39,421 bases of DNA from a virus, in the IMG/VR virus record IMGVR_UViG_3300026991_000009, positions 1-39,421 of that record, one strand, 5' to 3'. Within the stretch, counting starts at the first letter, position 1, and every line of letters starts with the position of its first letter. The notes under the pieces are model-generated. The model made no database searches, was not told the origin of the DNA, and saw nothing but the letters and a program-made list of their open reading frames with translations. The translations under genes and the position numbers were made by a program. This document shows, in pieces, positions 520 through 39,421 of this stretch.

Positions 520-694
520 ACATGGCCCGATACGACCGCGGCATTCCACCTCCAGTTGTACTCGTTGTAAGTTACGTTGTAGTGTAGTTTGTACAAACGG
601 ACGGATAGCCTGGGGTCCGTCGACCAACGCGTCGCCACGCGTCGTTGTTGGTCGTCGATAAGGCCGATTTCGGCTTTATTCCCAGGAAAAAGCG
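476..694. promoter_or_regulatory. Candidate replication origin: 20-bp inverted repeats flanking an AT-rich tract
   Basis: 476-495 cgttttatcctgggaataaa vs reverse complement of 675-694 (18/20; 13-bp perfect core); gttgta iterations 555-581; palindrome gtttgtacaaac 587-598. Confidence 0.5.
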
Positions 695-702
695 AACCCA
701 CG

Positions 703-2787
703 ATGGACGGAACACAAGCCACCACCGAACTCACGGACGCCGTACTCGAACTGTACCGCAACTACTACCGAGAGGAGATCGGGCAACTCGCCAACCGCTA
801 CCCGTCGGAGCAGCGCTCCCTGGAGGTCGACTGGTCGGACCTCTACAGCAAGGACCCAGACCTGGCGGACGACCTCCTCGAACACCCAGGCCAGATCATC
901 GACGTCCTCGAGGAAGCGCTGCGCCTCTACGACAAGCCCATCGACCGCGAGCTCGCGAACGCTCACGTACGCGTCTACAACCTCCCGGACGAACACACCT
1001 ACTTCCCGACTGAGTTCTCCCCGACGGAGGAGGCTGGCGGCTACCGGACCATCCGGGGCGACGTCCTGGTCTCGACGGAGACGTACTCGAAGATCGAGGT
1101 CGCCGCGTTCGAGTGTGACCGTTGCGGCACCCTCACCCGGATCCCACAGGCCGACGGGGACTTTCAGGAACCGCACGAGTGCCAGGGGTGCGAACGACAG
1201 GGCCCCTTCACCGTCAATCACGACCAGTCGGAGATGGTCGACGGCGAGACCATCCAGCTGCAGACGCCGCCGGAGGTCGCTGGCGGCGCCGGTCGGACCC
1301 TACAAGTGTTCGTCGAGGACGACGCGACGGACAAGGTGGAGATGGGCGACCGCATCGCCGTCTCGGGCGTCCTCCACCTCAACCAGAAGACGAAGGGGCG
1401 CAACCAGAAGACGGGGCAGTTCGAGCCCTACCTCGATGGGCACCACATCCAGATAGAGGAAGCGACGCAGGCGAACATGGAGATCGACGCCGACGTCCGC
1501 TCCGAAGTCGAAGCGCTCGCGAACGGCGAGAAGGGCGACCCGCTGACCGTCGCCGCAGACTCACTCCACACGGGCGTGTACGGCTACGAAACGGAGAAGC
1601 GGGCGCTCATCCTGGCCATCATCGGCGGCGCGACGAACACGCCGGACGTCCGCGGGAAGTTTCACGTGCTTTTCATCGGCGACCCGTCGACCGGAAAGTC
1701 CCAGCTCATCAACCGCGTCAACGAGATCGCCGCCCGGTCCATCTCGGTGAGTGGCCAGCAGTCTTCGTCGGCGGGCCTCGTCTCAACCGCCACCCAGGGC
1801 GAGTTCTCCGACGGTCGGTGGACGCTCTCGCCGGGTGCGTTCGTCAAGGCGAACGAGGGCGTCGTCACCATCGACGAGCTCGACGACATGGACCCGGACC
1901 ACCGGAGTTCCATGCTCGAACCGATGGCGAACCAGAAGGTCAGCGTCTCGAAGGCGGGCATCAACGCCACGCTGTCGACGAAGACGGCGGTCCTCGCAGC
2001 GGCAAACCCCAAGGGCTCCCGGTTCGACCCCTTCGACGCCCTGGCGGAACAGTTCGGGTTCGCGTCGAACCTCATCAGCCGGTTCGACCTGGTGTTCACG
2101 TTCCGCGACCAGCCCGACCAGGAGGACGACGCGGACATCGGCAACCACGTCACGCAGTACCGGGACGCGAAGATTCGGGCCGAACGCGGCGAGGAGATCC
2201 CCGAGGAACAGCAGGAAGTCGTCGACCAACCCGTTCCCGACGACACGCTGCGCATCTGGCTCGCCCTGGCCAACCAGCAACCGGACCCCGTGTACGAGAG
2301 TGACGAGGTCCGCCAGCAGCTGGTCGACAGCTTTGTCACGCTGCGCGGGGCGAACGGCTACGCCGAAGACACGGAAGTCCCGGTGACGTTCCGGAAGCTC
2401 CCCGGCGTCGAGCGCATTGCCCGGGCCCACGCCAAGCTGGAGTTCTCGCCGGTCATCACCCAGCGCCACGCCGACCAGGCGATGGACATGGTCGGACAGT
2501 CCATGCAGGACTACCAGAAGACGGAGGACGGCAAGTTCGACGCGGACATCGCGGAGACAGGGTCGTCGAAGTCCCAGAAGAAACGGGCAGAACTCATTGA
2601 GGGCGCCATCAAAGACCTCCAGTCCGCCTCCGACGAGGACATGGCGAAGGTGGACAAGGTCATCGCCGAACTGGACGGCGACGTCGACGCCGATCGCGTC
2701 GAGGACCACATCCAGAAACTCATGCACAGGAAGGGCGAGGCAATCGAGCCCCGAACGGGCTACGTCCGCTACCTGGGGGAGTGGTGA
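703..2787 (+). CDS. mcm: MCM replicative helicase (likely start ATG 703, MDGTQATT)
   Basis: Zn finger CDRC...CQGC, Walker A GDPSTGKSQL, Walker B IDELDDM, arginine finger SRFD, C-terminal winged-helix-like region. Confidence 0.97.
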   Translation: MDGTQATTELTDAVLELYRNYYREEIGQLANRYPSEQRSLEVDWSDLYSKDPDLADDLLEHPGQIIDVLEEALRLYDKPIDRELANAHVRVYNLPDEHTYFPTEFSPTEEAGGYRTIRGDVLVSTETYSKIEVAAFECDRCGTLTRIPQADGDFQEPHECQGCERQGPFTVNHDQSEMVDGETIQLQTPPEVAGGAGRTLQVFVEDDATDKVEMGDRIAVSGVLHLNQKTKGRNQKTGQFEPYLDGHHIQIEEATQANMEIDADVRSEVEALANGEKGDPLTVAADSLHTGVYGYETEKRALILAIIGGATNTPDVRGKFHVLFIGDPSTGKSQLINRVNEIAARSISVSGQQSSSAGLVSTATQGEFSDGRWTLSPGAFVKANEGVVTIDELDDMDPDHRSSMLEPMANQKVSVSKAGINATLSTKTAVLAAANPKGSRFDPFDALAEQFGFASNLISRFDLVFTFRDQPDQEDDADIGNHVTQYRDAKIRAERGEEIPEEQQEVVDQPVPDDTLRIWLALANQQPDPVYESDEVRQQLVDSFVTLRGANGYAEDTEVPVTFRKLPGVERIARAHAKLEFSPVITQRHADQAMDMVGQSMQDYQKTEDGKFDADIAETGSSKSQKKRAELIEGAIKDLQSASDEDMAKVDKVIAELDGDVDADRVEDHIQKLMHRKGEAIEPRTGYVRYLGEW

Positions 2788-2937: not shown

Positions 2938-3438
2938 ATGTCACAGGCAGTTAACACATCCAGCGGCAGCGACGCGAGTCCAGCCCGCCAGGGAGACGGC
3001 AGTCTCTCGCTGAAGGCAGCGCTGGAGTGGTTCGAGGAGCACGTCTGGCACACGCACCAAATCTGCTCGAACTGCTTCGCCCGGCTCAAACACTCCCAGG
3101 AAGTCCAGCGGGACGCGTGGGGGCACACCGAAACGGACTCCTGGAGAAGCGAGACCGCGACGCTGGAGCACGGCCACGACCCACTCCCAGACCCGCCGAA
3201 GACGACCTGCGAAGAGTGCGGGTCGATGCGCGGGCTCAAGCAGTACGACACGCTGTCAAAGGGGCAGGCCGTCGACCGCGTCCCCGAGCTGGTCGACCGC
3301 GTCCAGGAGGCGGGCTTCCTCGTCGACGTCGGGACCGTGTACGGCGTCGTTCGCGAGTACAAGCGCTCGGAGGACCACGCCAGCAACGACAAGGAGATCT
3401 TCGCCGTCGCGACCGCGCTCGGAGTCGAGAAAGCATGA
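2938..3438 (+). CDS. Hypothetical Zn-binding protein
   Basis: HQICSNC and CEECG motifs; ATGA coupling to the next gene. Confidence 0.75.
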   Translation: MSQAVNTSSGSDASPARQGDGSLSLKAALEWFEEHVWHTHQICSNCFARLKHSQEVQRDAWGHTETDSWRSETATLEHGHDPLPDPPKTTCEECGSMRGLKQYDTLSKGQAVDRVPELVDRVQEAGFLVDVGTVYGVVREYKRSEDHASNDKEIFAVATALGVEKA

Positions 3439-3692
3439 GCACGCACTCCGCCGACGTTTCGAGAGACCCCTCGGAGTACCGTCTCTCCATCCACGCCCAG
3501 CAACGTCGGCGGGAGCGCGACATCGAGTGTTCGGAGATCGCTGAGGCGATTCGAGGTGGGGAGGTTCGCAACACCGACGACGTCGACCTCCGCCACTTCG
3601 TCTACGAACTCCCAGACGCGGACGTCCCGGTCTACGCTGCGGCGGACGTCACGTCGGGCGAGATCGTCACCGTCGGCTGGAAGGACCAGTAA
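3435..3692 (+). CDS. DUF4258-like (RelE/BrnT-like fold) small protein, 85 aa
   Basis: LSIHAQQRRRERDIECSEIAEAIRGGEV matches the HAxxRxxERxI pattern; ends with IVTVGW. Confidence 0.7.
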   Translation: MSTHSADVSRDPSEYRLSIHAQQRRRERDIECSEIAEAIRGGEVRNTDDVDLRHFVYELPDADVPVYAAADVTSGEIVTVGWKDQ

Positions 3693-3693
3693 C

Positions 3694-3732
3694 GCAGACC
3701 CCGATGACCCCGACGCGAGGGTGAGGGTCTGC
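3694..3732 (+). other. GC-rich stem-loop directly after a stop codon
   Basis: gcagaccc (3694-3701) pairs with gggtctgc (3725-3732); inner accc/gggt stem. Confidence 0.55.
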
Positions 3733-3832
3733 ATCGTCGCACGAAGCGGGCATCTACCATCGCCGACGCGGTCCAGTTGCATACGTTCTGGCCTACATCG
3801 CTTTCCGTCAGTTCCCGTTGCGCCCGCTATCT

Positions 3833-3926
3833 GCCGGCCACTGGGAGCGACCACGGGGCTACAAGCCCGGGGACAACCCGGGACGCCACGTGGCCGTGCC
3901 AGGGTTCGATTCTCCTGAGGCCGGCC
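3833..3926 (+). tRNA. tRNA-like element (atypical or degenerate; possible ACA anticodon loop)
   Basis: Perfect 7-bp acceptor gccggcc/ggccggc; short D-like stem tgg/cca; CU-ACA-AG loop 3859-3865; long variable region; T loop GGTTCGATTC 3903-3912 on a bulged stem. Confidence 0.45.
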
Positions 3927-3933
3927 TTTAAAC

Positions 3934-4401
3934 ATGAGATACTCCAGAGAAGACTGTATCGAGGCCCTTCGGAAGGCAGCCGAAGAGTATGGACCGGACC
4001 TCACGGTAACGCAGTACCGAGAAAGCGGCTTCTGTCCGAGTGACCGGACCATCCTGAACAGGTTCGGAACTTGGAATGAAGCAAAGGAGGCTGCCGAGCT
4101 CGACGCTACTCGCGTTGGTCTCACGCTGGACAACAAGTACGGCCCAGCGGGATATAGGACCACACCGGACGGCTACTGCAGCTGGCAGTTCCAGGAGTTC
4201 GGCGACTGGGCTGCCGTGAAAGTCCACCGGCTACTCGCAGTTTCCGAGTTCGGGTTCGATGCAGTAACCGACAAGGTGGTCCACCACAAGAACGACATCC
4301 CCTGGGACAACAGACCTGAGAACCTCGAACCGATGGGGCGTGCCGAACACACGGCCCACCATCGCGAACAACAGGAAGCGCGGCGCGCATCTACCTCGTG
4401 A
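3934..4401 (+). CDS. HNH homing endonuclease with N-terminal homing-endonuclease-associated repeat
   Basis: YSREDCIEALRKAAEEYG...FGTWNEAKEAA repeat plus VHRLLAV...VHHKNDIPWDNRPENL...EHTAHH. Confidence 0.92.
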   Translation: MRYSREDCIEALRKAAEEYGPDLTVTQYRESGFCPSDRTILNRFGTWNEAKEAAELDATRVGLTLDNKYGPAGYRTTPDGYCSWQFQEFGDWAAVKVHRLLAVSEFGFDAVTDKVVHHKNDIPWDNRPENLEPMGRAEHTAHHREQQEARRASTS

Positions 4402-4434
4402 TTGGCACTATCAGGTTCGACTCCTGAACGAGGC
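4394..4434 (+). ncRNA. tRNA-like T-arm/acceptor minihelix downstream of HNH
   Basis: Perfect T arm tcagg-ttcgact-cctga (4411-4427); acgagg (4428-4433) can pair with cctcgt (4394-4399). Confidence 0.4.
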
Positions 4435-4605
4435 CTCCCCTCGCCGGCGGCTTGCCTACCCGTCGTCGAGGGCGCCACGTAGTCGGTCACCCACCCCCCG
4501 ACCGACACGTAGCTTCCACCACACGCTCCTTTTCCGTACCAGTCGCCAGCAGTACACGCTCGGGCGCAACCCCCGGGGGCGACCATCGAGCAACAGCATG
4601 GCACC

Positions 4606-4869
4606 ATGTCAACGACCAATACCACCCTTCTCGACGAGATCGCGGAGTACAACGACTCGCTCGACGACTGCCTGAGAGGCCGATTCGGGATGACGCTCAA
4701 GACCTTCAAGACCATCAAGGCGACAGCCCAGCTCGTCGGCGCCGGTGCCGGTGTATACGCAATGTCACTCGGCGCCCCACCGCTGGCGACGTTCGCCCTG
4801 ATGGCCATCATCATCTCCGGGCCCGAAGCCATCGAGTATCTGATCAACGACGGCGACCCCCACCGATGA
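4606..4869 (+). CDS. Small membrane protein (holin-like candidate)
   Basis: 87 aa; hydrophobic stretches LVGAGAGVYAMSLG and LATFALMAIIISG. Confidence 0.75.
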   Translation: MSTTNTTLLDEIAEYNDSLDDCLRGRFGMTLKTFKTIKATAQLVGAGAGVYAMSLGAPPLATFALMAIIISGPEAIEYLINDGDPHR

Positions 4870-5341: not shown

Positions 5342-5471
5342 GTTCGTGACCGAGGACGGCGTCCCCACCAGCGGGATCTGCAACGCCTGCCAGACGCCCG
5401 GTGCCGATGCCCGGCTGGCTGATGGCGAGCTCTACCACATCGACTGCGCCCCGGAGGAACTACTGGGATGA
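5334..5471 (+). CDS. Zn-finger microprotein, 45 aa
   Basis: CNAC...HIDC motif; ATGA coupling to terS. Confidence 0.6.
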   Translation: MSEFVTEDGVPTSGICNACQTPGADARLADGELYHIDCAPEELLG

Positions 5472-5983
5472 GCGACGATATCTGCGGCGCCGACACCACG
5501 GGAGAGGAGCCGTGCCAGAACCCGGCCGGCGAGAACGGCCGGTGCTGGATACCTTCCCACAACGACGCCGGCGCGGAGAATCCCGCCGGGCGTCCGTCGA
5601 AGTTCAACGACCAGCGCGCCCTGGACGCCATCGAGGCTGCCCGGGAAGGCCTGAGCAAGGCTGGGTGTGGTCGTGCCGCAGGTGTCGCCGACGGTACCAT
5701 CCAGAACTGGCTCGACGCCAACCCGACGTTCACCGACGAAGAGGGTGAGGAGCGAGAATTTTTCCGTGCCTTCATGCGCGCGCGTCGGGTCGGCGAGACG
5801 AACCTCGTCCAGGGCGGGCTCTACGACGAGGATACGGACTCGTCGATGGCGAAGTTCCTGCTGGCCTCGTCGTTCGACTACAAGAAGACCGAGCAGCGGG
5901 AGGTGACCGGCGAGGGCGGCGGGCCCGTCCAGGTCGACGTCAACGAGACGATCGTCGAGACGCCCCACTCCGAGGAGGACTGA
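5468..5983 (+). CDS. terS: Terminase small subunit
   Basis: Cys/His N-terminus, GRPSKF then HTH (GLSKAGCGRAAGVADGTIQNWL); directly upstream of terL. Confidence 0.85.
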   Translation: MSDDICGADTTGEEPCQNPAGENGRCWIPSHNDAGAENPAGRPSKFNDQRALDAIEAAREGLSKAGCGRAAGVADGTIQNWLDANPTFTDEEGEEREFFRAFMRARRVGETNLVQGGLYDEDTDSSMAKFLLASSFDYKKTEQREVTGEGGGPVQVDVNETIVETPHSEED

Positions 5984-5986
5984 CCC

Positions 5987-7318
5987 ATGAGCACCGACAC
6001 CGTCACCGTCGACTGGAAGTGGACGGACTACCAGGCGAAGGTCCGGGACGCCCTCGAGGCGGCCGAGCACGACCTCGTCGTGTTCCGGACGGGCTACGGT
6101 GGCGGGAAGTCCATCACGGGAGCGCAGTGGATCCACCGCGGCGCCCTGCAGCTGGACCACGGCGAGAGCCTGGTCATGGCGCAGGACTTCCAGAAGGGGC
6201 GAGGGACTACGTTCAAGGTCTACTGGGAGACGCTCCCCGGCGAGAACACCGTCCCCGACGATGCCGAGGGCGATCCCGAGAACTCGCCTATCATCGCTGG
6301 CTACAACGCCAACGAGAATCGGGTCACGTACATCACCGGGCACAAGGTCCGCCTCGGGAGCGCGGACAAGTGGAACCGGTACGCCGGTGGTGAGTTCCAC
6401 CGCATCTGGTGTGACGAGGTCGCTCACTACGACAACACGGACCTTTACCGGCTCCACGAGATGCTCGTCACTCGCCAGCGGACGGCGGCGGGCCCCAACA
6501 CCACGCTCTGGACGTCGACCGGCAACGGCTACAACCAGTTCTACGATGTCACCGAGCGCCAGGTCAACAAGGACGACGAGCCACTCCCGTGGGCGGACTC
6601 CATGAAGGTCATCGTCGCGTCGACGGAGCACAACACGCTCCTCCCCGAGGACGGCCTGGAGAAGATCAAGAACCAGTTTCAGGGCACCGCTCGCGAAGAG
6701 CAGGGCCTCCACGGTGGCTTCGCCGCTGCGGAGGGGCTCGTCTACGACGATTTCAACCGCAACATGCACGTCGTCCAGGCGGAGGACGTCGCCGACCGGC
6801 TCGTCGAGGGCCACGCCATCTACGGCTACGACGCCGGGTGGGACGACCCGCGCGTGGTTGTCGAGATCCGTCGCACCCACGCCGACCAGTACGTCGTCTG
6901 GGACCTCTTCTACGAGTCCGAGTCCCGGCTGGCCGAGCTGGTCGACCCCGACGACGTCCTCGACGACCCGGCGTGGATGGACGGCCGGCCCGAGGGCTAC
7001 GTCTACTGCGAGCACGAGCCTGCCCACATCCAGCAATTTCGGCAGGCAGGCTGGCCGGCGGTGAAGGCGGAGAAGAGCCTCGACGGTGGCATCGACCACG
7101 TCCGCGACCGGCTGGCGACGGACGGCGAGGGCCGGCCGGGCCTGCTCGTGACCGAGCGCTGTTCCGACCTCATCCAGGAGTTCCTCTCCTACAAGGAGGA
7201 GCACGTCGGGAAGGCCGCGGCGAAGGACCACGCCCTGGACGCCCTTCGCTACGCGCTGTTCACGCACACGCCGGCGCCTGACCAGGACGACGACTCGACG
7301 GGAGTGAGCTACATATGA
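5987..7318 (+). CDS. terL: Terminase large subunit
   Basis: Walker A GYGGGKS, Walker B WCDEVAH, nuclease motifs GYDAGWDDP and DHALDALRY. Confidence 0.96.
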   Translation: MSTDTVTVDWKWTDYQAKVRDALEAAEHDLVVFRTGYGGGKSITGAQWIHRGALQLDHGESLVMAQDFQKGRGTTFKVYWETLPGENTVPDDAEGDPENSPIIAGYNANENRVTYITGHKVRLGSADKWNRYAGGEFHRIWCDEVAHYDNTDLYRLHEMLVTRQRTAAGPNTTLWTSTGNGYNQFYDVTERQVNKDDEPLPWADSMKVIVASTEHNTLLPEDGLEKIKNQFQGTAREEQGLHGGFAAAEGLVYDDFNRNMHVVQAEDVADRLVEGHAIYGYDAGWDDPRVVVEIRRTHADQYVVWDLFYESESRLAELVDPDDVLDDPAWMDGRPEGYVYCEHEPAHIQQFRQAGWPAVKAEKSLDGGIDHVRDRLATDGEGRPGLLVTERCSDLIQEFLSYKEEHVGKAAAKDHALDALRYALFTHTPAPDQDDDSTGVSYI

Positions 7319-26295: not shown

Positions 26296-26415
26296 TCAGT
26301 CGCGCAGGTTGCGAAGATGGGTGTCCTTCCACCACTCGGACTTGACATCGGACTGCTCGCAGCCCGGGAGGTGGGCGATGTACTCCGGCGCCGCAGCGGA
26401 CTGGCCGCTACCCAT
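26296..26415 (-). pseudogene. Orphan 3' fragment homologous to the C-terminus of the 27229-27462 gene (39-codon ORF)
   Basis: MGSGQSAAAPEYIAHLPGCEQSDVKSEWWKDTHLRNLRD; 10/26 ungapped identities including H-x-P-x-C-x-Q...SEWW. Confidence 0.8.
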
Positions 26416-27232
26416 CTGCGTGTGCCTGGTTATGTTCCGCTTTCGTGAGTAATTCGACGTTCTCCAGCCGATTGTCCCATTTCACGCCGTTTCTGTGGTG
26501 GACGTCGTACTCGCCAGAGAAAACTCGGTGCGGCTCGCTGCCTTTTGAGATGGCGAGGAGCTGATGTACTCGCAGAAACCCTCCGCCTTCTGAGCTGTCT
26601 TTCCAGTACTCGTAGCCGTCAATTCCAGTTCCGAAGGTTGCGAAGCTGTTCTTAACGGCTTCGAGCCTGCCTCTTCGTGGGATGCCGTGGCGTTGCATCT
26701 CGGTTCGGATAGCCTCGCGGTCTACACCGAGTTCCTGGCCAACTTCGCTCAGTGACATCCCCTCCTCGTGATACAGCCGCTGAAGCTCTTCTGGGTCGGC
26801 CCACATTCGCCGTCTTCGTTTAATCGAGTCTGTTCGATTCTCTATCCCGTGTCGTCGAAGCCAGGTCTTGATTGTCCCGGCCGAGCACCCCATATCGTCA
26901 GCAATCTCTTTCGGCGTCCTCTCATCTTGGTGATGCGCCTGCCGGAGTGTGTACTCATTTTGCCAGGGCATCTCGGTGTGCTTCCCATTGAATGACGGCC
27001 CCCTCTTCTCGATCCCCAGCTCGTCCATCCATTTGAGAATCCCAGAGGGTGTGATGTCCCACCCCTCCGCTATCTCCTCTGAGGTCATTCCCTCTCCGTG
27101 GTAGAGTTCCCGTAGCCGGGCTTCGTCTGTCCACGGTTTCTCGTCGTTGTGCGACTTCGATGCGTGGATCTTCTGAGCACGTTCTGTTTCGAACGTCCGC
27201 GTGCAATTCTCGTGGGTACACTCTACAGTCAT
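26408..27232 (-). CDS. HNH endonuclease with C2H2 finger and three HTH repeats, 274 aa
   Basis: CTHENC...HASKSH; three PW/MW...LY...EIA..GC...HGI repeats; VHQLLA...VHHRNGVKWDNRLENV...EHNQAH. Confidence 0.92.
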   Translation of the reverse strand: MTVECTHENCTRTFETERAQKIHASKSHNDEKPWTDEARLRELYHGEGMTSEEIAEGWDITPSGILKWMDELGIEKRGPSFNGKHTEMPWQNEYTLRQAHHQDERTPKEIADDMGCSAGTIKTWLRRHGIENRTDSIKRRRRMWADPEELQRLYHEEGMSLSEVGQELGVDREAIRTEMQRHGIPRRGRLEAVKNSFATFGTGIDGYEYWKDSSEGGGFLRVHQLLAISKGSEPHRVFSGEYDVHHRNGVKWDNRLENVELLTKAEHNQAHADG

Positions 27233-27462
27233 TGGTCCAGGATTTGCTCTGCCCACCATTCTGAGAGGGTGAATCGTTGCGAACAGTGTGGTTCGTGCGG
27301 AACCTCGTCGACGTTCTTCGCTCTTGCACCACACTCCTCACACTCGACTTCGCCGGTCGGCTCCCCGATCTTGTACCCGTCAACGGAGACGGGCGTGTCC
27401 GACCGTACGAGCTCGAACTCGGTGTCGGGATCGCTGAAACTCCGATACTGGCTGCTACCCAT
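27229..27462 (-). CDS. Zn-finger protein, 77 aa
   Basis: MGSSQYRS...CEECG...HEPHC...SEWW; ATGA coupling to HNH. Confidence 0.75.
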   Translation of the reverse strand: MGSSQYRSFSDPDTEFELVRSDTPVSVDGYKIGEPTGEVECEECGARAKNVDEVPHEPHCSQRFTLSEWWAEQILDQ

Positions 27463-33578: not shown

Positions 33579-34088
33579 ATGATAGACAACTCGGAAGGGC
33601 ATAAAGAATATTGCCCCACTAACCGCGGTAGCACAGATCGGCCCTGGCAGGACGAAGAGGTACTTCGAGACCTCTACGTTGACGAGGGGCTCAGTATGGA
33701 AGCAGTGGCCGAGAAGCTCGGCTGCGCTCAAAAAACAGTTCACAAGTGGATCCACCAGCACGGGATCCAGATTACGGATCCTCGTGGGCGCGGCGTGAAG
33801 GGGCGTCGGATCCCTGGGTTCCCAGCCGCTTTCGGTCACCGGAAGTCCGGGTCCGAAACTGTCACCTACGAAGTGTGGCGAGACAGTCAGGACGTAGTTA
33901 CTGTCCACCGCCTTCTCGCAGTCGCGGAGTATGGATTCGACGCACTCGATCGTGACGTCGTCGTCCATCACGAGAACGGTATCGGCTGGGACAACAGGCC
34001 CGAGAATATCGAGCTAATGGACCACTCCGAGCACTCACGCCTGCACGCCGTCCAACTTTGCGAACAGCGAGGAGGGTGGGTTTCATGA
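33579..34088 (+). CDS. HTH-HNH endonuclease
   Basis: RPWQDEEVLRDLY..EGLS...LGC...TVHKW...HGI; VHRLLAVAEYGF...VHHENGIGWDNRPENI. Confidence 0.92.
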   Translation: MIDNSEGHKEYCPTNRGSTDRPWQDEEVLRDLYVDEGLSMEAVAEKLGCAQKTVHKWIHQHGIQITDPRGRGVKGRRIPGFPAAFGHRKSGSETVTYEVWRDSQDVVTVHRLLAVAEYGFDALDRDVVVHHENGIGWDNRPENIELMDHSEHSRLHAVQLCEQRGGWVS

Positions 34089-34600
34089 GCGCCGCCGAGT
34101 CCGAACCGGCTGAGGCGGTCCACCCGACGGACAAGCCGTACAAGAATTCCGACCTGCTCGAACGCCTCTACATCGGTAAGCGACTCACCACGCGCGAGAT
34201 CGCCGAGCGCCTCGGGTGCACTAACGGGACTATCAGCCGGTGGCTGAACAACCACGGCATCGAGACCCGAGAGAACTGGACGGCAGGCGTCGAGGCCGCG
34301 AAGCGGGCGAACCGGGTCGAACGAGTGAAACTCCGCTCGCTCCCGTCCGGGTACGAGTACTGGGCATCCCAGGAGTGGCGGTCTGGCGAAGACACGCGGA
34401 CGAACGAGATCGTCTACGTTCACCGTCTCCTTGCCGTTGCGGAGTACGGCTTCGAGGCCGTTGTCGACAACGACGTCCACCACGAGAACGGAGTAAAGTG
34501 GGACAACCGCCCTGACAACATCGCAGTCGTCGATCCGGCGGAGCACGGCCGCCACCACTCGATGGAGTTCCACCACGGTGACGGAGGCGATCTTGCATGA
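34085..34600 (+). CDS. HTH-HNH endonuclease (tandem paralog)
   Basis: KPYKNSDLLERLY...EIAERLGC...TISRWL..HGI; VHRLLAVAEYGF...VHHENGVKWDNRPDNI. Confidence 0.92.
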   Translation: MSAAESEPAEAVHPTDKPYKNSDLLERLYIGKRLTTREIAERLGCTNGTISRWLNNHGIETRENWTAGVEAAKRANRVERVKLRSLPSGYEYWASQEWRSGEDTRTNEIVYVHRLLAVAEYGFEAVVDNDVHHENGVKWDNRPDNIAVVDPAEHGRHHSMEFHHGDGGDLA

Positions 34601-38110: not shown

Positions 38111-39421
38111 TCAGTCGTCCAGTGCGGCGAGTGTCTCGGCCAGCCCGGCCGGGTCGGCGCCGGCCTCGGAGATGGCCTGCGCGACGGCGACGGTGTCGGG
38201 GTCGAGACTCGACATCCCCTCGTCTCGGGCACGGTCGCGAGCTTCGTCGAGCTGCTCGGCGAAGTCTTCGCTCGGCCCGAACACCTCGTCGCAGCTGGGG
38301 CAGCGTCGCCAGTGCTCTTCGAGCAACTCCCCACACGTCGGGCAGATGTCCGGCGTGAAGGACTTGGGCCCGTCGTCCTCATCGCGAACGCCGAGGGCGA
38401 CCTCTGCCTTCTCGATGTAGTCCGCGTCGAAGAGGTGCTGGTAGGTCTTCTCGAGGGCGTCCGACCCCTCGACGTGGCCGAACAGCATCTTGATGGTCGC
38501 GGGGTCGACGTCGTGGTCTCGCTTCATCACGGTCGCGCAGTAGTGGCGGAAGTTGTGGGGGTTGACCGGCTTGTCGACGCCGGCGCTCTCGGCGAGGCGA
38601 TTGAGTGTTCCCTCGACGGCGCCCTCCGACCAGTGCCCGTCGGGGTCGGTCTGGGGGTGCGACGGGTCGCCGACGAACAGCCAGTCGTCCGGGTCGGCGC
38701 CGGAGCGGCGGAGGTTGATGTAGTCGCGGACGTACTTCCGAGCTCCGAAGATGGGGCGCTTTCGCCCACGGGCGAGGGCTCCCTTCAGCCCGCCGAACTC
38801 GTCGTCGTAGTCCTCGTTGAGGTAGATGTACCCGTCGTCGACGTCCTTGAGTCGGAGGGTCAGCACCGCCTTGACGCGCTGGCCGGTGAAGATGAGCAAT
38901 TCGAGGAAGGCCCGATTCCGGACGGCGTTCCTGGTGTCACCACAGGCCTGCCGCAGCGCCTGGACTTCGTCGTCGGTGAACATGTCCTGCTCGTCGTGCT
39001 TCGGCGACGAGTCCGGCGTGAACGTAGTGATCGCCTCGGGGTCGACGCCGAGATCGTGGTAGCGATAGAAGGTCTTGAGGGCGCACTGGTACTTTGCGCA
39101 GGTACCCTTCGAGAGGCCGTGGTCGTCGTGAAGGGCGTCCATGAAGTCGTTGACGTCCTCGACGTCACCGACGCCGGTCGGGTCGAAGTCCCGGTCGCAG
39201 CACAGCCGGACTGCCTTGGTGTAGTCCAGGACCGTCCCGGGACGGAGCCCCTTCACGTCCCCGTCCTCGTCGCGGTACTTGTTGCGGACGGTCGCCTCGT
39301 CGAGGGCGTCGCTCCACTCGAGGATGGCGTCCTTCGCCTCCTCGGAGATGTCGCCCTCGTCGGCGCGGTCCTCGACGTTCCCCCGCTCGTATTCCAACTT
39401 GTCGCGCGGTGTCTGAGCCAT
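38111..39421 (-). CDS. int: Tyrosine integrase (SNJ2-like) with C-terminal Zn ribbon
   Basis: RNRAFLELLIFTGQR, GGLKG, HNFRH, FGH, KTY catalytic residues; CPTCGE...CPSC. Confidence 0.96.
   Translation of the reverse strand: MAQTPRDKLEYERGNVEDRADEGDISEEAKDAILEWSDALDEATVRNKYRDEDGDVKGLRPGTVLDYTKAVRLCCDRDFDPTGVGDVEDVNDFMDALHDDHGLSKGTCAKYQCALKTFYRYHDLGVDPEAITTFTPDSSPKHDEQDMFTDDEVQALRQACGDTRNAVRNRAFLELLIFTGQRVKAVLTLRLKDVDDGYIYLNEDYDDEFGGLKGALARGRKRPIFGARKYVRDYINLRRSGADPDDWLFVGDPSHPQTDPDGHWSEGAVEGTLNRLAESAGVDKPVNPHNFRHYCATVMKRDHDVDPATIKMLFGHVEGSDALEKTYQHLFDADYIEKAEVALGVRDEDDGPKSFTPDICPTCGELLEEHWRRCPSCDEVFGPSEDFAEQLDEARDRARDEGMSSLDPDTVAVAQAISEAGADPAGLAETLAALDD

Follow-up and report, generated by a model that had tools for sequence, protein, structure and literature searches.

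The window, that is the whole stretch of DNA analysed here, corresponds to a complete provirus record of IMG/VR, 39,421 bp long and with a G+C content of ~65%. The genes neighbouring the locus under study have haloarchaeal relatives (Halorientalis, Salinibaculum, Halosimplex). An MCM helicase gene and two small genes lie on its upstream side, and an HNH gene begins 241 nt after the second of these. A further gap of 204 nt leads to gene C, which opens the packaging block, ahead of the terminases. The tRNA-like elements E1, E1' and E2 are arranged around the HNH gene and before gene C (Table 1). When the region was compared by BLAST with 50,697 phage records, the HNH domain was the sole match.

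Table 1 Features of the locus and of the rest of the window, with their positions.
Feature	Positions	Strand	Description
MCM helicase gene	589-2787		
First small gene	2938-3438		
Second small gene (gene B)	3435-3692		DUF4258-like
E1	3833-3926	+	Full-size Y-shaped tRNA-like element
E1 acceptor	3833-3839/3919-3925	+	7 bp; discriminator C at 3926
E1 long arm, inner hairpin	3866-3871/3877-3882	+	GACAA loop, 3872-3876
E1 T arm	3900-3904/3912-3917	+	Loop 3905-3911; one-base bulge in the T stem
Junction TTTAAAC	3927-3933	+	7 nt, from E1 to the HNH start codon; absent in HNH-free L029 (alignment)
HNH gene	3934-4401	+	Free-standing homing-endonuclease gene, 155 aa; ATG at 3934, stop at 4399-4401
E1'	4394-4435	+	42-nt mini tRNA-like element
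E1' stem	4394-4399/4428-4433	+	6 bp, acceptor-like
E1' linker	4400-4410	+	11 nt, D-loop-like, contains TTGGCAC
E1' T arm	4411-4415/4423-4427	+	Perfect; loop 4416-4422; starts 9-10 nt past the HNH stop
Spacer	4436-4541	+	Two conserved hairpins and a T-run; collinear with the L029 spacer right after E1
E2	4542-4584	+	Mini element: 6-bp acceptor, 11-nt linker, T-like hairpin; 21 nt before gene C
Gene C	4606-4869	+	Small hydrophobic (membrane) protein, 87 aa
Small terminase gene	5468-5983		
Large terminase gene	5987-7318		Followed by the portal gene
Further HNH_3 gene	26408-27334	-	HTH-type N-terminus
Further HNH_3 gene	33579-34088	+	HTH-type N-terminus; in tandem with the next
Further HNH_3 gene	34058-34600	+	HTH-type N-terminus
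Tyrosine integrase gene	38111-39421	-	Only integrase gene of the window; start is the last base of the record

E1 is a virus-encoded tRNA mimic and belongs to a conserved family. It combines the top half of a tRNA with a single-stranded, GG-containing linker at the position of the tRNA D loop, and the D and anticodon arms are replaced by one long arm with a conserved pentaloop hairpin. Acceptor and T-arm helices of 7 and 5 bp, one bulge and an unpaired 3' discriminator give it the anatomy of a t-element, the tRNA-like structure found upstream of 5S rRNA in Haloferax volcanii (Holzle et al. 2008, 2012, as cited in PMC4326828). The T-loop motif of E1, GGTTCGATTC, is at positions 3903-3912. A search of both strands of the 39.4 kb found GGTTCGANTC in two copies, both on the plus strand, 511 nt apart and flanking the HNH ORF; this count alone is not significant, because 0.93 copies are expected in the whole window.

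The tRNA-like fold, the T arms, the complementary stretches and the position of the HNH gene were all present in the sequence as the original prediction had described them. Its 94-nt tRNA-like fold before the HNH gene was borne out, with two corrections. The minimum free energy fold of the single sequence lacked a T arm, and the T stem is bulged. The family consensus fold has the T arm, and both covariation and the match to a model built from relatives speak for the fold.

For the comparison with relatives, loci of gene C homologues were gathered from collections of viral, genomic and metagenomic sequence. Wherever a homologue had sequence upstream of it, a tRNA-like or Y-shaped element preceded gene C. 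In 12 distinct relatives, this was one full element ending 10-35 nt ahead of the start codon of gene C, and in 3 relatives it was a mini element just before the gene. Among the carriers are proviruses of Halosimplex pelagicum, Halorientalis persicus and Salinibaculum litoreum. Distant relatives had compact Y-shaped versions of 44-47 nt. The site is the boundary between replication genes (MCM) and packaging genes in related haloarchaeal proviruses. The family consensus consists of an acceptor of 6-9 bp, a T arm with a TTCRANY-type loop, and one long arm between them, whose inner hairpin carries a G-R-Y-A-A pentaloop in the relatives. The stems vary among relatives through compensatory changes. 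The T-loop sequence was not conserved in the L006/E2 subtype.

Two compact elements, at L015:2729-2772 and L034:2429-2475, have a 7-bp closing stem, a small pentaloop hairpin and a hairpin with a loop of 7 or 6 nt. It follows from these elements that the three-way shape is conserved beyond the T-loop sequence.

A covariance model, R1, was built from six relatives only, with the window excluded from training. It matched the window at 3834-3925 with 32.6 bits (E about 5e-6) and the element of the closest relative, L029, with an E value of about 3e-8; L013 and L014 were matched as well. In an alignment of 10 sequences, itself fitted to the model, 95.5% of the cells were paired, and 25 of the 31 pairs had double (both-side) changes. 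Sliding the partners brought the pairing down to 40-49%, and no shuffle attained the observed values. When 151 genomes from the family of Halosimplex were searched with R1, three true matches were obtained, all of them immediately before a gene C homologue. In this way R1 brought in two further genomes, with gene C directly downstream of the element in both. Matches in the host genomes L049, L052, L053 and L054 were treated as false positives, as they lay in apparent coding regions and had no T-loop motif.

Covariation and conserved position together indicate that E1 is a conserved structured RNA or, less likely, a conserved DNA element. In the latter case, the elements would be a promoter/terminator module or a packaging signal, and the tRNA shape would be left over from a viral tRNA array that has degenerated. 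About half of the relatives have a T-run behind the element. The distance from the T loop to the gene C start, 23-34 nt, is that of an archaeal TATA box in front of a leaderless mRNA, and the site is just upstream of the terminase genes. We nevertheless consider a DNA-level role improbable. Compensatory changes keep all helices, including the acceptor formed by distant ends, which is expected for an RNA but not for a promoter. The T-loop-type sequence and the GG linker are features of the tRNA elbow, and TTCGANT makes a poor TATA box.

ARAGORN, one of the tRNA callers that the original prediction had suggested for this region, did not recover a tRNA. At default settings, with or without introns, it found none in the window, and Rfam had no match in the window at the gathering score. 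The best Rfam match to E1 was tRNA-Sec (3833-3925, 18.3 bits, E 1.5, against a gathering score of 47). The E1 family is previously undescribed and absent from Rfam. At lowered thresholds, ARAGORN covered E1 among many obviously spurious calls and proposed a tRNA-Cys(ACA) with a 20-nt intron. In intron mode, it also called the elements of L005 and L044 at default stringency, and the L044 element was above the Rfam tRNA threshold. On these grounds E1 could be a genuine odd tRNA gene, for example an intron-containing one. This is very unlikely, as the D stem is absent and the presumed anticodon loop, CUACAAG, has no conserved stem. The bases flanking this lookalike were unpaired in L029 and L051, and in the family consensus CUACAAG forms an internal loop within the long arm.

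Low-scoring tRNA-like sequences in haloarchaeal virus genomes may also serve as integration sites. In halovirus HF2, the tRNA-like gene HrrHF2_450, next to the integrase gene, is the attP used by the integrase (PMC8707807), and a tyrosine integrase gene is part of the present provirus record. An attP of the HF2 type is a copy of the 3' part of a host tRNA, located beside the integrase gene. E1, in contrast, covaries throughout, its 5' strand with its 3' strand, and is intact in the integrated state, both here and in proviruses within complete chromosomes, where viral genes flank it left and right. The sole integrase gene is found 34 kb off, where the record ends, and for this reason an attP at E1 is extremely improbable. 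The gene starts at the last base of the record, which places the provirus boundary and the att site at or just beyond the end of the window. A direct-repeat search of the window revealed no att-like repeats at the E1/HNH site, only the cores of three HNH_3 paralogues.

The HNH protein has an N-terminal homing-endonuclease-associated repeat (PF18780 HNH_repeat, 8.7e-12) and a C-terminal PF13392 HNH_3 domain (4.6e-9); a nuclease domain and a DNA-binding module are both present. Its last 7 residues are a lineage-specific extension running into E1', and the aligned relatives are without it. The gene is a compositional outlier, with a GC3 of 0.69 compared to 0.82-0.92 for the neighbouring genes.

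Alignment with an HNH-free relative, the check that the original prediction had proposed, revealed an empty site. The close relative L029 (gene C 77% identical), which is identical to L032 in this region, has the same collinear flanks with no HNH gene between them. L029:838-1089 aligned to window positions 3691-3928 (80%), and L029:1064-1506 to positions 4413-4852 (76%, BLAST). The two alignments overlap in L029, and therefore 26 nt have one copy in L029 and two in the window. These 26 nt comprise the T arm and the 3' acceptor strand, with one copy at each end of the insert. The HNH cassette (3927-4436) starts right after the E1 discriminator and ends with the second T arm and 3' strand. Such borders leave E1 intact and produce a second, miniature element, E1', after the HNH stop. 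The two T arms of the window share a T-stem sequence unseen in L029 and L051, which suggests that the copies arose by duplication or conversion within the lineage of the window.

The predicted invasion of a tRNA-like gene by the HNH gene is largely borne out by the single element and single T arm of L029, by the collinear flanks and by the deviating GC3. The T arm and 3' end are indeed duplicated, and either copy may be the replacement 3' end of the original prediction. E1 is completed by the upstream copy, whose 3' strand pairs with the 5' strand of E1. In the downstream copy, the 3' strand differs and pairs instead with the last HNH codons; this copy resembles a self-contained mini element.

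Gene B is another presence/absence difference adjoining E1. L029 has no counterpart of it, and the corresponding gap in L029 is ~100 nt shorter. No relatives of gene B were found in the viral contigs searched.

The HNH ORF might instead be an intron within one split tRNA-like gene, closed by a helix of gtgcca (3896-3901) with tggcac (4403-4408) and removed by the archaeal splicing endonuclease. The 6-nt complement across the ORF is present as predicted. It is at chance level, with about 1.5 such complements expected between the flanks (estimate), and had no other support; the 6-bp helix is not surrounded by bulge-helix-bulge geometry. A whole E1 precedes the ORF and aligns over its full length with the HNH-free allele. 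The split or intron-containing tRNA does not hold up, as the downstream 3' strand matches the upstream 5' acceptor at 3 of 7 positions and cannot pair with it, and we give this explanation almost no credence.

The second perfect T arm, expected ~10 bp past the HNH stop, was found at 4411-4427 as part of E1', which has helices of 6 and 5 bp. Its 3' strand, ACGAGG, is complementary to CCTCGT, the last two HNH codons plus the first base of the stop. This pairing had also been predicted; the complement exists, and ACGAGG has an alternative partner in CCTCG at 4439-4443. The TTGGCAC of the linker is close to the D loop of the L044 tRNA and to the tRNA D-loop consensus. With its 6-bp stem, 11-nt linker and T arm, E1' has the same build as E2 and the minis of locus L040. 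In a scan of 179 kb of loci for minihelices, defined as a T arm plus a 6-7-bp acceptor, there were 15 matches, E1' among them, compared to 1.6 in dinucleotide shuffles. Conservation and covariation in relatives, whose absence was part of what would have refuted the original prediction, were seen for E1; the other copies of E1', on the HNH-carrying contigs L019 and L020, are identical to that of the window, with zero variation.

E2 has two helices of 6 bp each and is conserved in L029, L030 and L031. R1 matched it weakly (E 0.22 in the window, 0.045 for E2 of L029). Its acceptor is shared with the full-size element of L006/L050, as is, in L029, the loop sequence. The shared acceptor indicates that minis arise from full elements by loss of the long arm.

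E1' could also be a decaying scar: a fragment of E1, duplicated or displaced, that has no function and whose acceptor-like pairing is fortuitous. In the alignment with L029, its T arm and 3' strand fall on the only T arm of that relative, and E1' shares the CAGG/CCTG stem with E1 of the window. A 6-bp complement within 150 nt upstream of a T arm is not rare (estimate 0.1-0.2), and ACGAGG, as stated, pairs downstream too. Against this, the T arm is perfect despite a flank divergence of about 24% from L029, and the 5' strand is placed such that an 11-nt D-loop-like linker results, as in E2 and the L040 minis. Both L040 minis flanking an HNH gene have been kept by compensatory changes. We regard the scar as the minority view, though one to be taken seriously.

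In the spacer behind E1', the window shares with the HNH-free L029 two conserved hairpins (~4438-4470 and ~4477-4501) and a T-run near 4525. These structures may act in termination or regulation.

The closest relatives of the HNH protein are 44-48% identical and were found in unrelated contexts, beside tRNA or mini tRNA-like elements. The close clade was sampled in only three independent contexts. At L040-L043, the HNH gene (48% identical in L040) is located between two 45-nt minis, one 44 nt before its start and one 10 nt after its stop (L040:936-980 and L040:1511-1555). The two minis are paralogous, with a conserved linker and with five compensatory double changes in the acceptor and T stems. 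A third T arm is present in L040 at about 1640-1665. On the low-G+C contig L044, an HNH gene with 44% identity is located ~40 nt downstream of a tRNA (L044:295-384, 40.7 bits, above the Rfam threshold), which has an enlarged anticodon-loop region of 22 nt. L040 and L044 have a TATA-like box about 28-31 nt upstream of the HNH start, so that 5' processing may be dispensable for those HNH genes.

The similarity between L040 and L041 ends abruptly after L040:1732. The start of the database protein P0040, the L044 HNH, is set too early, and its translation runs through the tRNA.

More distant HNH_3 genes on the IMG/VR contigs L065 and L067 lie inside genuine tRNA arrays, with tRNAs on both sides within 1.2 kb. 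No minihelix was found near nine HNH_3 controls with different N-termini (HTH-type or distant), and no T-arm motif near the other three HNH_3 genes of the window. The one of these at 33579 is likewise an outlier in GC3 (0.65).

From these contexts we infer that the HNH clade probably homes at tRNA or tRNA-like genes and that it travels with, or creates, the flanking mini element. The invariant T-arm DNA is a likely, if putative, recognition or recombination site of the HNH enzyme.

Our best joint explanation of the locus, with a probability of roughly 65%, is that E1 is a conserved tRNA mimic, that the HNH clade homes at such elements, and that the elements serve as RNA punctuation. In this last role, their 5' and 3' ends would be cleavage sites of the RNase P and tRNase Z of the host. 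Cutting would separate early from late transcripts and leave short leaders, 7 nt for the HNH gene and 10-25 nt for gene C, and the HNH mRNA would be released between E1 and E1'. By analogy with known tRNA-like substrates, processing of E1 and E1' by RNase P and tRNase Z, the other alternative of the original prediction, is plausible and agrees with the anatomy of the locus. A broader formulation is possible and remains tentative. According to it, a lineage of haloarchaeal tailed proviruses would punctuate their transcripts with anticodon-less top-half mimics, which would be cut to set the start of the packaging operon. The HNH clade would recognise T-arm DNA, that of real tRNA genes included, insert behind it and carry its own minihelix, so that the HNH mRNA and the downstream operon are both still correctly processed.

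tRNA punctuation of polycistronic transcripts is known from animal mitochondria and from the mascRNA of MALAT1. As there, tRNA-shaped modules could set mRNA ends through RNase P and RNase Z. We know of no case that has been shown for an archaeal virus, and the present locus would be a candidate case of tRNA punctuation outside organelles.

The nearest cellular counterparts of E1 are the t-elements of Haloferax volcanii, which, like E1, are haloarchaeal, tRNA-like and non-decoding and lie directly upstream of another gene product. They are cellular, whereas the members of the E1 family are encoded by viruses and share a conserved, pentaloop-bearing long arm; the two were compared by description only. 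In Haloferax, RNase P and tRNase Z free an RNA that has been placed between two t-elements (PMC4326828). If the proposed processing is true, E1, the HNH gene and E1' would be a natural counterpart to the engineered 't-element' cassettes of Haloferax.

As for the HNH gene, the closest precedent is SegB of phage T4, a homing endonuclease encoded in a tRNA cluster (PMC2330249). As with SegB and the genes of L065 and L067, an endonuclease gene occupies the space separating tRNA-type genes, is carried by some close relatives and missing from others, is a compositional outlier and leaves the flanking RNA genes intact. Unlike in phage tRNA clusters such as that of T4, the flanks in the window are anticodon-less mimics and minihelices. 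The host element is an archaeal provirus, the enzyme combines HNH_3 and HNH_repeat domains and is not of the GIY-YIG type, and a T arm occurs in duplicate at the insertion. The locus suggests that the known affinity of homing endonucleases for tRNA clusters reaches archaea and tRNA mimics. For homing, a plausible target is the invariant T arm, and L029 (empty) and the window (filled) form a ready substrate pair.

The E1 family, if confirmed as described, adds a structured, covarying and Rfam-absent RNA family to the genomes of archaeal viruses, whose non-coding RNAs are, to our knowledge, almost unexplored.

Between the element and gene C, most relatives (L004-L014, L021-L031), and the window at 4585-4608, have a T-run or CTCCGCG. 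Next come a conserved ATG that is out of frame, five bases and the ATG of gene C. The resulting ATG-N5-ATG motif may be a start-site or ribosome-contact signal.
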